Assembly (NCBI GenBank): GCA_048938295.1
Contig: JBHLMI010000047.1
Coordinates: 1 to 11,632, forward strand
Length of the DNA: 11,632 bases
Source of the DNA: Promethearchaeota archaeon
Lineage (GTDB): Archaea > Asgardarchaeota > Hermodarchaeia > Hermodarchaeales > Hermodarchaeaceae
Direction: 5' to 3'
Within the stretch, counting starts at the first letter, position 1. Each line of letters starts with the position of its first letter. Below are positions 1,594 through 11,446 of the stretch, piece by piece. A model generated the notes under the pieces. It saw nothing but the letters and a program-made list of their open reading frames with translations. It searched no databases and was not told the DNA's origin. Both the position numbers and the translations under genes were made by a program.

Positions 1594-1608
1594 CAAAATA
1601 GTTAAAAG
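1594..1608 (+). promoter_or_regulatory. Putative BRE/TATA promoter for the tRNA-Met/tRNA-Thr pair
   Basis: CAAAA-TAG-TTAAAAG about 23 nt upstream of tRNA-Met. Confidence 0.5.
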
Positions 1609-1630
1609 GTACGGGCTGGGGTTTAGTGCT

Positions 1631-1814
1631 GCCGAGGTAGCTTAGCCTGGTTGAGCGCCAGACTTGTAACCATTCGTGGGATATTAGGGCGATACTCATA
1701 GGGCTTTGCCCCAGGGTCAAAATATGATGATTGCTGGCGCACCGGAGAAATCTGGAGGTCGCGGGATCGAACTGAAGTCTGTAGGGCTTCACGAAATGCC
1801 CGCCCTCGGCACCA
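1631..1814 (+). tRNA. tRNA-Met(CAU), elongator type, with three introns: 30/31 (1662-1693), 37/38 (1701-1749), 59/60 (1772-1797)
   Basis: Acceptor GCCGAGG/CCUCGGC plus A-CCA, anticodon stem CCAGA/UCUGG, T stem GCGGG/CCCGC. Intron 1 has a full BHB (UGAG/CUCA, CGCC/GGCG, bulges AG|A and AU|A). Intron 2 has central helix CUCA/GGAG (one mismatch). Intron 3 has AUCG/CGAA (one mismatch) with outer helix UGAAGUC/GGCUUCA. G1-C72 and no three-GC anticodon stem argue against initiator. Confidence 0.88.
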
Positions 1815-2885: not shown

Positions 2886-3476
2886 CTATTTTTCAGCAAC
2901 AATATCAGCAGGGGATACAAGATAGTACGTTGTTTCCCCCTGTCGGTCTAACACTGCAAGCATCAATTTCTTCCGGTTACGTTTCGCTTGTTTGCTAAAC
3001 GCATCCAGCTCTTCCACCTTCAAGGGAGAACCCTCAGAAATCGCGCAAACAAAATACTGAGCAGTTGCCTCATTGAGTTTAGCGCCTCTAGGATATACGC
3101 GGAACAACAATCCTTTCCCATACCCCGTCCGCACTACATATCCTCGGCTTCGAAGATCACTGTATACAAGAAAACGAGTCCAAAGACCCGGATGCCCCTC
3201 TGATAAGCGCATCAGCAGCAAAGAAAATTCCAGCTCCTCCTTTCGTGGCAGACTCACCGCTATACGCTGTCGCCGAGCCAATAATAGCGCCTCTTCAGGC
3301 TCAAGTTCTAATTTCTGCTCACCCTTGAGCGTACCATAATACCCCGCCTCATACAACACAGACGCATACTCACCTTCCACCACCACTTTCCCCCGAATTA
3401 GTCTCGCCGGAATAGGTTCATCAGGGAGCGGAAGGCGCTCCTCTTCTGAAAATCGATCCTCATTTTCCTCTGCCAT
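2886..3476 (-). CDS. endA: tRNA splicing endonuclease subunit, probably the structural (non-catalytic) subunit
   Basis: EndA family motifs YYG..., LEPEEALLL, VYSDLRSRGYVVR, RKKLMLAVLD..G..TYY. The catalytic His position is Thr138 and the KFGxDF motif is degenerate. Confidence 0.9.
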   Translation of the reverse strand: MAEENEDRFSEEERLPLPDEPIPARLIRGKVVVEGEYASVLYEAGYYGTLKGEQKLELEPEEALLLARRQRIAVSLPRKEELEFSLLLMRLSEGHPGLWTRFLVYSDLRSRGYVVRTGYGKGLLFRVYPRGAKLNEATAQYFVCAISEGSPLKVEELDAFSKQAKRNRKKLMLAVLDRQGETTYYLVSPADIVAEK

Positions 3477-4074: not shown

Positions 4075-4207
4075 CCCGGCGTAGCTCAATCTGGTAGAGC
4101 GTCTGGCTGTAGGTACACACCGCACCTCGAGCCATTATGGCAATGACCCGGTGTCAACCAACGCAGACACCAGATGGTTCCTGGTTCAAATCCGGGCGCC
4201 GGGACCA
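4075..4207 (+). tRNA. tRNA-Tyr(GUA) with a 56-nt canonical 37/38 intron (4113-4168)
   Basis: CCCGGCG/CGCCGGG acceptor (C1-G72), A73-CCA, UCUGG/CCAGA anticodon stem, short variable loop, central helix CUGU/GCAG with bulge AC|A. Confidence 0.95.
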
Positions 4208-4276: not shown

Positions 4277-4385
4277 GCCCAAGTAGTGTAGCTCGGTCTA
4301 TCATCTGGGACTGTCAACGGTCGATGATGATTCATTGATCTGCGGATCTCCTAGGACTCGGGTTCAAATCCCGGCTTGGGCGCCA
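4277..4385 (+). tRNA. tRNA-Asp(GUC) with a 31-nt canonical 37/38 intron (4317-4347)
   Basis: GCCCAAG/CUUGGGC acceptor, G73-CCA, UGGGA/UCCUA anticodon stem, central helix CUGU/GCGG, bulges CA|A and AU|C, intron hairpin GGUCGAUGA/UCAUUGAUC. Confidence 0.94.
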
Positions 4386-8797: not shown

Positions 8798-11446
8798 ATG
8801 TCACACCCCCTCAAACAGATTGGAAGCGTCTGGTTCGGACTACTCTCCCCTGAAATAATTCGTAAAATGAGTGTAACACAGGTTATTACAGCTGACACCT
8901 ATGACGAAGACGGCCTTCCCATTTCCTCTGGACTGATGGACCCCAAACTAGGCACCATTGAACCCGGTCAGCGCTGCAAATCCTGTGGAAACCGAGTCGG
9001 CGAATGTCCTGGTCACTTTGGCCACATTGAACTGGCTCGTCCTGTCGTGCACGTCAGCTTCGCGAAGGAGATTAAGAAATTCCTCAAGGCACTCTGTAGA
9101 CGCTGTGCTCGATTAAAACTAAAAGAGGAATCTCGACAAACACTCAAAGAACGAATTGATACGTACTATGAAAAATACGGTCATTTAGACCAAGTTCTCG
9201 CTGATGAAGTCCTAAAAGAAGCTGGAAAAGCCACCACATGCCCCCACTGCGAGGCAGAACAATACAAAATCAAGTTCGAAAAACCTACAACCTTCTACGA
9301 AGAGAAGATGGAAGGCAGTGTCCGCCTTACACCTACTGATATTCGCGACCGACTAGAACGAATCACACCTGAAGATGCCTACCTCATGGGCATCGACACC
9401 CGTGTCTCCAAGGCTGAATGGATGATTCTCACCGTCCAACCTGTACCTCCAGTAGCAGTTCGTCCATCCATCACATTAGAATCTGGTGTAAAATCAGAAG
9501 ATGACCTTACCCACAAGCTTGTGGATGTCATCCGAATTAATCAACGACTCCGAGAAAACATCGAAGCTGGTGCACCACAACTGATTGTGGAAGACCTTTG
9601 GGAGCTGCTTCAATATCATATAACTACTTATTTCAATAATGAAGTTTCTGGCATTCCACCAGCGCGCCATCGATCCGGTCGTGCCTTACGAACATTAGCC
9701 CAACGATTAAAAGGAAAGGAAGGGCGATTCCGAAGCAATCTTTCTGGAAAACGTGTCGACTTTTCTGCTCGAACAGTGATTTCGCCTGATCCTAACCTCT
9801 CCATCAACGAAGTAGGCGTTCCTTTAGAAATTGCCAAAACCCTAACGGTTCCTGAACGGGTCACCGAATGGAATATCGAAGATATGCGGGAACTCGTCCT
9901 TAAGGGTCCTCAGGGCTACCCAGGCTGTAATTATGTTGTACGCCCTGATGGGAAACGCATTGATCTACGCTATGTAAAAGATCGGAAGACTAACGCCGAT
10001 GGATTAGCCCCTGGCTACGTGATTGAAAGACACCTTCGGTCAGGGGATATTGTCCTCTTCAACCGTCAACCGTCACTTCACCGTATGTCTATCATGGCCC
10101 ATGAAGTGAAGGTAATGAAATACCGTACATTCCGGCTCCACCTTGTTGTCTGCCCGCCGTATAACGCAGATTTCGATGGCGACGAAATGAATCTCCACGT
10201 CCCCCAAAGCGAAGAAGCTCGAGCTGAAGCACGAATTCTCATGCTTGTTCAAGAACAGATTCTTAGCCCCCGTTATGGTGGTCCTATAATCGGCGGAATT
10301 CAAGACTACATCTCTTCCGCGTTCTTACTTACGCGAAAAGGCTCAATATTCAATAAACGCCAAACCTGCCAACTTTTAGCCTCAGCTGGCTACCGAGAAG
10401 ACCTTCCACCACCCACCATCAAAGAGCCCGAACCAATGTGGACCGGGAAACAAATCTTTAGCATGCTGCTGCCAAAGGGTCTGAACCTATCCTTGAAAGC
10501 CCGAATTTGCCAGAAATGCGATAAGTGCCAAAAAGAAAGGTGCCCATATGATGCCTATGTGCTCATTCGTGACGGTCAGCTCCTAACCGGTGTAATTGAT
10601 AAGAAGGCCATTGGAGCTGCACAACCCGAAAGTGTTCTACACAGAATTGCAAAAGACTATGGAAACTCTGCAGCTCGAAGATTTCTCGACGCGCTCTGTC
10701 CCCTACTTGTTGTACTCATCACCAACATGGGCTTTAGCATGGGAATTGATGATGTCATTCTCACACCAACTGCCATACGGCAAATTGAACAGATTCTCAA
10801 AGACGCAGAAGCAGAAGGAAGCCAGTTAGTTCAAATCTATGAAGCAGATCAACTTCAGCGGCTTCCAGGTCGTTCAATTGAGGAAACCTTCGAAATGAAA
10901 ATGATTGAGATTCTTGCTCGTGCACGTGACGAAGCTGGCGAAGTGGCGGCACAACAACTCGGACTTGATAAGCATGCGGTAATAATGACTGGTACAGGTG
11001 CGAAAGGTAACCCCCTTAACTTGGCACAAATGGCCGCCAGCGTTGGGCAACAAGCGGTCCGTGGTCAACGCATCTCTCGAGGGTATCGGAGACGAACACT
11101 CCCCCACTTTGTTCAAGGCGATTTGTCTCCACAGGCTCGAGGATTTGTGGTTGCCAGTTATCGAAAAGGATTGAATCCTATCGAATTCTTCTTCCATGCA
11201 ATGGGAGGCCGAGAAGGCTTAGTTGATACTGCTGTTCGAACCAGCACTAGTGGGTATATGCAACGCCGGCTCATCAACGCACTCCAAGACATCAAAGTCG
11301 AATACGATGGTACCGTACGAAATTCAAACGGAGAAATCATCCAATTCAAATATGGCGAAGATGGAGTCGACCCCGCTCGAAGCGATCATGGCAAGGCAGT
11401 AAACCTTGACGTAATCATTGAACGCGTCTTAAGCCAAGAGAAGTGA
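8798..11446 (+). CDS. rpoA1: DNA-directed RNA polymerase subunit A' (Rpo1N)
   Basis: 882 aa; CPGHFGHIEL, GKRVDFSARTVISPD, catalytic NADFDGDEMN, bridge helix DTAVRTSTSGYMQRRL. Confidence 0.99.
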   Translation: MSHPLKQIGSVWFGLLSPEIIRKMSVTQVITADTYDEDGLPISSGLMDPKLGTIEPGQRCKSCGNRVGECPGHFGHIELARPVVHVSFAKEIKKFLKALCRRCARLKLKEESRQTLKERIDTYYEKYGHLDQVLADEVLKEAGKATTCPHCEAEQYKIKFEKPTTFYEEKMEGSVRLTPTDIRDRLERITPEDAYLMGIDTRVSKAEWMILTVQPVPPVAVRPSITLESGVKSEDDLTHKLVDVIRINQRLRENIEAGAPQLIVEDLWELLQYHITTYFNNEVSGIPPARHRSGRALRTLAQRLKGKEGRFRSNLSGKRVDFSARTVISPDPNLSINEVGVPLEIAKTLTVPERVTEWNIEDMRELVLKGPQGYPGCNYVVRPDGKRIDLRYVKDRKTNADGLAPGYVIERHLRSGDIVLFNRQPSLHRMSIMAHEVKVMKYRTFRLHLVVCPPYNADFDGDEMNLHVPQSEEARAEARILMLVQEQILSPRYGGPIIGGIQDYISSAFLLTRKGSIFNKRQTCQLLASAGYREDLPPPTIKEPEPMWTGKQIFSMLLPKGLNLSLKARICQKCDKCQKERCPYDAYVLIRDGQLLTGVIDKKAIGAAQPESVLHRIAKDYGNSAARRFLDALCPLLVVLITNMGFSMGIDDVILTPTAIRQIEQILKDAEAEGSQLVQIYEADQLQRLPGRSIEETFEMKMIEILARARDEAGEVAAQQLGLDKHAVIMTGTGAKGNPLNLAQMAASVGQQAVRGQRISRGYRRRTLPHFVQGDLSPQARGFVVASYRKGLNPIEFFFHAMGGREGLVDTAVRTSTSGYMQRRLINALQDIKVEYDGTVRNSNGEIIQFKYGEDGVDPARSDHGKAVNLDVIIERVLSQEK

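Follow-up and report, generated by a model that had tools for sequence, protein, structure and literature searches.

Nested introns and a plausible order of splicing in a three-intron elongator tRNA-Met gene of a Hermodarchaeota archaeon

The window considered here (the whole stretch of 11,632 nucleotides that was analysed) belongs to the genome of a Hermodarchaeota archaeon, a 2.5 Mb MAG of 66 contigs with a completeness of 91.6%. At positions 1631-1814 of the plus strand it harbours a tRNA(CAU) gene broken by three BHB introns, the exons of which sum to 77 nt. Exon 1 (1631-1661) contributes the 5' strand of the acceptor stem, the D-arm, G26 and the anticodon-stem nucleotides 27-30 (CCAG), and is nearly invariant across 15 orthologs. 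It is followed by intron 1 (1662-1693; 32 nt), which lies at position 30/31 and is bounded by a strict hBHBh' motif, and by exon 2 (1694-1700), a 7-nt micro-exon (ACUCAUA) covering positions 31-37 with the anticodon CAU. Intron 2 (1701-1749; 49 nt) occupies the canonical position 37/38 and is present in all 15 orthologs, while exon 3 (1750-1771) supplies A38, the 3' strand of the anticodon stem, the variable loop, the 5' strand of the T-stem and T-loop nucleotides 54-59. Intron 3 (1772-1797; 26 nt) interrupts the T-loop at 59/60, and exon 4 (1798-1814) provides G60, the 3' strands of the T-stem and acceptor stem, the discriminator A and an encoded CCA, as is found on nearly all tRNAs of the host genome. 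Deletion of the three introns yields a 77-nt cloverleaf with encoded CCA that is accepted by ARAGORN. The unspliced gene is detected neither by ARAGORN nor by the Rfam tRNA model, both of which call only the tRNA-Thr(GGU) at 1828-1904.

This intronless tRNA-Thr(GGU) gene, also on the plus strand, starts 13 nt after the CCA of tRNA-Met, and the same neighbour is found 11-14 nt downstream in 15/15 orthologs. The two genes are bridged by RNA-library contigs of relatives and probably form one transcription unit. A TATA-like element, TTAAAAGG (1602-1609, plus strand), precedes the 5' end of the tRNA by about 22-29 nt; it is conserved in 15/15 orthologs of two genera while its flanks vary, and is likely to be the promoter of tRNA-Met. 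Further upstream, on the minus strand, lies a TnpB/IS605 OrfB-type gene (191-1495) with Cas12f1-like TNB, OrfB_IS605 and HTH domains, the start of which is located approximately 135 nt upstream of tRNA-Met. Downstream, the plus strand bears tRNA-Tyr(GUA) at 4075-4207, with an intron of approximately 56-59 nt, and tRNA-Asp(GUC) at 4277-4385, with an intron of approximately 31-33 nt.

The introns were resolved with our own SPLITS-like solver, which recursively excises BHB-bounded segments from acceptor-plus-CCA-anchored stretches and then applies a cloverleaf test. At depth 3, the three introns described above constitute the sole solution for tRNA-Met; in a genome-wide run at depth 4, the same solution ranks top of two by score. 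The solver solved tRNA-Asp but not tRNA-Tyr, thus the BHB of the latter is probably relaxed. The genome-wide census, in which most tRNAs of the host carry 0-2 introns, is incomplete, as tRNA-Ile(UAU), tRNA-Tyr and a 170-nt gene are unsolved.

Of the three motifs, that of intron 1 is complete: the central helix (H) pairs CGCC with GGCG at 4/4 positions (1656-1659/1688-1691), the outer helix (h) pairs UGAG with CUCA over 4 bp (1652-1655/1695-1698), the h' helix has 2 bp and the bulges lie at 1660-1662 and 1692-1694. Along an ACT repeat, the boundary may be shifted by up to 3 nt with the product unchanged. The central helix of intron 2, CUCA/GGAG (1695-1698/1744-1747), has 3/4 pairs with an A.G mismatch; its h' helix (1702-1703/1742-1743) has 2 bp and its h helix is the anticodon stem, interrupted by intron 1 and therefore offering 1 bp in the full precursor versus 5 bp without intron 1. 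For intron 3, the central helix AUCG/CGAA (1766-1769/1792-1795) has 3/4 pairs with an A.A mismatch, h is the T stem (5 bp) and h' (1773-1779/1785-1791) has 6 bp. The bases cited in the sequence-only reading (UGAG at 1652-1655, CUCA at 1695-1698 and GGAG at 1744-1747) proved correct, and its proposal of a three-intron tRNA(CAU) with these junctions is borne out by the ARAGORN cloverleaf, the solver solution and conservation in 15 genomes.

The stems of the gene set it apart from an initiator tRNA: it has G1-C72 and an anticodon stem CCAGA/UCUGG, and lacks the initiator features (A1-U72 and an anticodon stem closed by three G-C pairs). Apart from it, the genome yielded one further CAU tRNA, the initiator (C47:76913-76990), with A1-U72 and a GGGG/CCCC stem. 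The gene is thus apparently the sole elongator tRNA-Met gene, a statement that refers to a 91.6%-complete MAG and to home-made detection that misses some multi-intron tRNAs. Most archaea have a tRNA-Ile2(CAU), in which C34 is converted to agmatidine and AUA is read, and a CAU anticodon with G1-C72 fits either identity. Nevertheless, on indirect evidence, such an assignment is very improbable here: AUA is already covered by a tRNA-Ile(UAU) gene in the same genome, a search of the 91.6%-complete host genome (G000) gave no TiaS_FLD domain of TiaS, which was detected in four out of four archaeal control genomes, and the genome would be left without any elongator tRNA-Met found. The tRNA-Ile(UAU) gene (C44:26169-26314), called by ARAGORN as tRNA-Met(CAU), resolves best as a two-intron gene with introns at 29/30 (HBh'; H 4/4, h 0, h' 3) and 37/38. 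Together with the missing TiaS, it suggests that the lineage reads AUA with a UAU anticodon.

Two further readings of the locus were discarded. A pseudogene is rejected, as the exons, the promoter and the BHBs are all conserved across 15 genomes and no other elongator tRNA-Met was found. Removal of one large intron could also create a UGU (Thr) anticodon loop from the CUUGUAA that follows CCAGA at the start of intron 1; this motif is unconserved (CUAGUAA, CUUGGAA and CUUGCAG occur in its place) and an intronless tRNA-Thr(UGU) is present at C35:35013-35087.

Conservation of the tRNA-Met gene extends over 15 genomes from two genera. Intron 1 is present in six of these (G000, G001, G003, G006, G010 and G014) and absent from nine, namely five of the same genus (G002, G008, G011, G012 and G013) and all four sister-genus genomes. 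In each of the nine, its absence takes the form of an exact 32-column gap at the predicted junction, so that these natural alleles equal the predicted ligation product. As for intron 3, the h' helix shows compensatory changes at 5/7 pairs, and its junction matches the uninterrupted T-loop UUCGAAG of a single-intron relative (L018); one pair of the D stem has also undergone a compensatory change. Taken together, the conserved gene, the nine exact intron-1-less orthologs, the intact T-loop of L018 and the covariation in intron 3 argue against a chance pattern. Covariation cannot test the helices that create the conflict described below, because these consist of invariant exon bases. T-loop position 54 (window position 1766) is A in G000 and G001 and U in the other 13 orthologs, which produces both the A.A mismatch in the central helix of intron 3 and an unusual A54 in the mature tRNA.

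The BHBs of introns 1 and 2 compete for the same exon bases, C27-C28 and C32-A35. In the fold of intron 1, C27-C28 belong to the central helix and C32-A35 to the outer helix, while the fold of intron 2 has to build the anticodon stem from nucleotides 27-31 and its central helix from 32-35. The two motifs are therefore mutually exclusive, as had been proposed for C32-A35, and the conflict extends to C27-C28. The accompanying claims, that the 37/38 partner is GGAG and that the flanking anticodon stem is interrupted until intron 1 is removed, hold equally: the stem grows from 1 bp to 5 bp. In agreement with this, the solver takes intron 2 only once intron 1 is gone, and the motif of intron 2 in the full precursor (H 3 bp, h 1, h' 2) is weaker than those of all other introns accepted in the genome census.

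Folding was modelled with ViennaRNA (nearest-neighbour model, 37 C; constrained folds and pair probabilities), in which proteins, tertiary tRNA folding and co-transcriptional kinetics are left out. The MFE structure of the full precursor includes the intron-1 BHB (pair probabilities of approximately 0.55); the probability of the intron-2 BHB is 0.00 and its ddG +15.8 kcal/mol. Among the six three-intron orthologs, formation of the intron-2 BHB in the full precursor costs +13.6 to +16.5 kcal/mol; with intron 1 deleted in silico, the cost in the same six falls to +4.0 to +6.1 kcal/mol, as in the seven natural two-intron orthologs (+3.1 to +5.9 kcal/mol). The folding of intermediates called for by the sequence-only reading thus agrees with it, in that the penalty on intron 2 drops once intron 1 has been removed. 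According to the model, the presence of intron 1 would make the intron-2 BHB costlier by roughly 10 kcal/mol, and excision of intron 1 would restore the ordinary situation. In silico, intron 2 forms its BHB only after intron 1 has been excised, which is the order dependence termed "nested". The central helix of intron 1 is still able to form after removal of intron 2.

The main competitor in the full precursor (approximately 0.43) pairs exon nucleotides G24-G30 with CUGGCGC inside intron 2. This intronic segment (1734-1740) is perfectly complementary to G24-G30 (GCGCCAG; 1655-1661) and is invariant in 15/15 orthologs, while the adjoining AU-rich stretch is variable. In the model, it is this pairing that leaves the intron-2 BHB 3-6 kcal/mol uphill even in genes without intron 1, and the absolute folding numbers are unreliable for that reason. 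In the sister genus, part of the CUGGCGC segment doubles as the h' strand. Just upstream of it in intron 2 lies a box-C-like AUGAUGA (1724-1730). A box C/D guide in intron 2 was considered and rejected: box D/D' is not consistently present, both the spacing and the presumed target differ from one ortholog to the next, and the sister genus lacks box C.

The splicing machinery bears directly on how strictly the order would be imposed. Two EndA-family genes are present in the genome. The copy in the window (2886-3476, minus strand; 196 aa), with the Pfam domains tRNA_int_endo and tRNA_int_endo_N, has Thr at the catalytic His position when aligned to M. jannaschii EndA and appears to be a beta-like structural subunit. 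It lies 1.1 kb from the three-intron tRNA, inside a cluster of four tRNAs of which three bear introns. The copy on contig C1 (186 aa; region of C1:9416-9670) matches, at E = 2e-45, the alpha (catalytic) subunit of the (alpha-beta)2 enzyme from Aeropyrum pernix and keeps the catalytic Tyr/His/Lys (FAVY, IDHS, VRKR). It aligns with 3P1Z_B through the Crenarchaea-specific loop, in which K44 is retained and R46 is replaced by K; experiments have established that broad substrate specificity is conferred by this loop (PMC3241643). With one catalytic paralog and one without the catalytic His, the enzyme appears to be of the (alpha-beta)2 broad-specificity type. An RtcB ligase is encoded on contig C61 (E = 1.5e-170).

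On these grounds, a preferred pathway can be proposed. In the primary transcript, the intron-1 BHB, in which the D-arm and nucleotides 26-28 would pair with the intronic GGCG and with C32-A35 of the anticodon loop, and the independent T-loop BHB of intron 3 should both be able to form. The canonical intron-2 BHB would be blocked, because intron 1 splits the anticodon stem and the fold of intron 1 sequesters CUCA. Removal of intron 1 would rebuild the anticodon stem and free CUCA, turning intron 2 into an ordinary 37/38 substrate; the preferred pathway would therefore take intron 1 before intron 2, and intron 3 at any time. All three introns would be cut by the (alpha-beta)2 endonuclease and the exons rejoined by RtcB. 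We infer this order of excision in cells from the modelled folds.

An alternative is that no order is enforced: a broad-specificity (alpha-beta)2 EndA would read each bulge pair largely independently, the conformers of the precursor would interchange, and the shared bases would cause only a mild kinetic bias. The specificity loop of the alpha subunit, with both basic residues still basic, speaks for this view, as enzymes with such a loop cleave relaxed and non-canonical motifs (PMC3241643). The same genome provides a case in point in the anticodon-stem intron of tRNA-Ile(UAU), with H 4/4 yet h = 0, which EndA must presumably cut without an outer helix. The relaxed intron-2 motif (H 3, h 1 and h' 2 bp) might likewise be cut in the full precursor, and removal of intron 2 first would be no dead end, given that the central helix of intron 1 still forms afterwards. 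Against it stand the weakness of intron 2 in the full precursor relative to every other accepted intron of the genome census, the approximately 10 kcal/mol by which its BHB is costlier than in orthologs without intron 1, and the observation that, in the single three-intron tRNA studied by experiment, the 37/38 intron is the last to be removed despite independent BHBs (PMC3728597). We regard the absence of an enforced order as rather unlikely, though clearly in contention.

The earlier statement that intron 1 must be excised before intron 2 is accordingly retained in part: the order itself is plausible, but "must" is too strong in view of the broad-specificity loop of the EndA alpha subunit and of the HBh' intron that would have to be cut in tRNA-Ile(UAU). 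Removal of intron 1 before intron 2 is best described as a plausible preference suggested by the modelled folds, and not as an obligatory order. An elongator tRNA-Met with nested BHB introns, in which intron 1 leaves before intron 2, intron 3 may leave at any time and the mismatch is no timing device, is the reading that we consider fairly probable.

The last element of this reading concerns the A35.G mismatch (GGAG in place of UGAG), for which the sequence-only reading had suggested a role in enforcing the order, a mechanism in which the mismatch would have evolved so that intron 2 resists cleavage as long as intron 1 is in place. In its favour, all six carriers of intron 1 have GGAG, the three UGAG variants (G008, G012 and G017) are all without intron 1, and with UGAG the intron-2 BHB is cheaper in the model by approximately 2-3 kcal/mol (L015). 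However, this 6-versus-3 split among related genomes is not significant. GGAG occurs in 12/15 orthologs and additionally in a truncated copy (G005); it is found in 6/9 orthologs without intron 1, including 3/4 of the outgroup genus, and the mismatch therefore predates intron 1. Moreover, nested 30/31 and 37/38 introns coexist with a perfect UGAG (G041 twice, G025 and G043) or with UGGG (G295) in other Asgard families, and the split anticodon stem and sequestered CUCA account for the dependency without any mismatch. A timing role evolved for this purpose is hence hardly credible, and the comparison of orthologs marks the A.G mismatch as an inherited, tolerated imperfection and not an order-enforcing adaptation.

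No RNA run containing the tRNA-Met gene of this genome was found; four metatranscriptome runs share a few words with the region, and their contigs come from related species only. One RNA contig from run X18 joins 1616-1661 to 1694-1848, so that exactly intron 1 is missing, and retains the leader, introns 2 and 3 and read-through into tRNA-Thr. The contig comes from another species, as 19 positions differ from this genome. Although it looks as an intron-1-first intermediate should, it counts as a lead and not as evidence, since the genus has DNA alleles without intron 1 and RNA libraries may contain DNA. A contig of a related species from run X16 starts at 1750, the first base of exon 3 and the 3' cleavage site of intron 2, and continues across intron 3 as far as tRNA-Thr; since contig ends are not readable as RNA ends, it is no more than a curiosity.

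The distribution of intron 1 points to a history of its own. A nucleotide tree of rpoB places the with/without pairs G006/G002 and G010/G013 in clades of 100% support and G014/G012 in one of 83%; the basal lineages and the outgroup are without intron 1. The intron-1 sequences are alignable among the six carriers, and the most economical account is therefore a single gain followed by at least three precise losses in the genus. Exchange of alleles between species could conceivably take the place of repeated loss. Errors of binning are unlikely to account for the distribution, because rpoB lies on the contig of the tRNA gene in most genomes (the exceptions being G003, G013 and G015). The rpoB ortholog of G014 (L039, G014:C1:241314-244673) is full length with two in-frame stops, one TGA and one TAA, which could be an assembly error or something else.

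On a wider scale, the pattern GAGCGCCRG-N(14-60)-GGYGNN-ACTCATA was searched in 400 genomes of the phylum and was found in 13 of them, belonging to five families; the reversed control pattern gave 0 matches. The introns at 30/31 across these five Asgard families measure 20-32 nt and are unrelated in sequence. All pattern-bearing genes also carry a 37/38 intron, so the ACUCAUA micro-exon is intron-flanked in each of them. One of them (L020) has its three introns at the same positions as the present gene, with the same dependency of intron 2 on intron 1. In G041, a member of another Asgard family, two tRNA-Met copies lie approximately 2.3 kb apart (C169:7751-7789, L055, and 10113-10148, L068), both with 30/31 and 37/38 introns and with differing intron-1 sequences (23 and 20 nt).

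A more speculative interpretation, which we put forward tentatively and hold to be doubtful on balance, is that position 30/31 of the Asgard elongator tRNA-Met is a recurrent hot spot of intron gain and loss, used in at least five families and cleared by precise, repeated removal within genera. The invariant GAG(22-24)/CUC(32-34) and CGCC(25-28) would pre-supply most of the BHB, so that unrelated inserts ending in GGYG could settle there. If this were true, the with/without pairs named above would offer a tractable system for the arrival and departure of archaeal tRNA introns. Likewise, if an obligatory two-step excision around the anticodon of the sole elongator tRNA-Met were real, it could serve as a checkpoint on the supply of tRNA-Met.

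The locus is of interest on several counts. Three successive splicings, two of them structurally coupled, would be needed to produce the apparently sole elongator tRNA-Met of a Hermodarchaeota archaeon, and the gene is a clear case of a functional tRNA that is invisible to standard tRNA finders. The comparative set, with exact presence and absence of intron 1 and recurrence in five families, bears on the gain and loss of archaeal tRNA introns, and the two-intron genes along with the GGAG and UGAG variants constitute natural controls for in vitro tests of splicing order.

Much of the background is already established, namely nested BHB introns, ordered removal and multi-intron Asgard tRNAs. What is new is the presence and absence of intron 1 among sister species, the 30/31 and 37/38 pair around ACUCAUA in five Asgard families, and an (alpha-beta)2-type EndA in the genome with the gene for its beta-like subunit in the same window. 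The suggestion that three-intron tRNAs are known mainly from a few TACK lineages was overstated in framing and in rarity, since the host belongs to the Asgard Hermodarchaeota, multi-intron tRNAs are documented in Asgard archaea and nested BHBs in archaea. [quoted passage not shown] The nested multi-intron genes of Thermoproteales (Sugahara et al. 2007 RNA; 2008 Mol Biol Evol; summarised in PMC3728597 and PMC4033280) share with the present gene a last intron whose BHB awaits removal of the others, as well as a host (alpha-beta)2 EndA with the specificity loop; their hosts are crenarchaeal, whereas here the host is an Asgard archaeon.

Among Asgard archaea, introns interrupt 92-95% of tRNA genes in Atabeyarchaeia and Freyarchaeia, and more than half contain several (PMC11291895); repeated gains of tRNA introns have been catalogued in 90 Asgard genomes (bioRxiv 10.64898/2026.10.13.758758). 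The present gene resembles the tRNAs of both reports in having several BHB introns at non-canonical positions and in being missed by standard annotators, here ARAGORN and Rfam. It differs in that repeated gains are reported there, while the data here favour one gain and precise losses within the genus, and in that the tRNAs of Atabeyarchaeia and Freyarchaeia are heavily interrupted, whereas this genome is less so. Neither Hermodarchaeota nor an order of excision came up in a text search of the two reports. An experimental parallel in intron placement is offered by a red alga, Cyanidioschyzon merolae, in its tRNA-Ile(UAU) (PMC3728597; PMC9602550), which is likewise interrupted in its 5' half, at 37/38 and in the T-loop. 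In this three-intron tRNA, the 37/38 intron goes last by RT-PCR, and the order correlates with BHB stability (PMC3728597). The algal system is, however, eukaryotic and its BHBs fold independently instead of being nested, whereas in the Hermodarchaeota gene the order would follow from the bases that introns 1 and 2 share.
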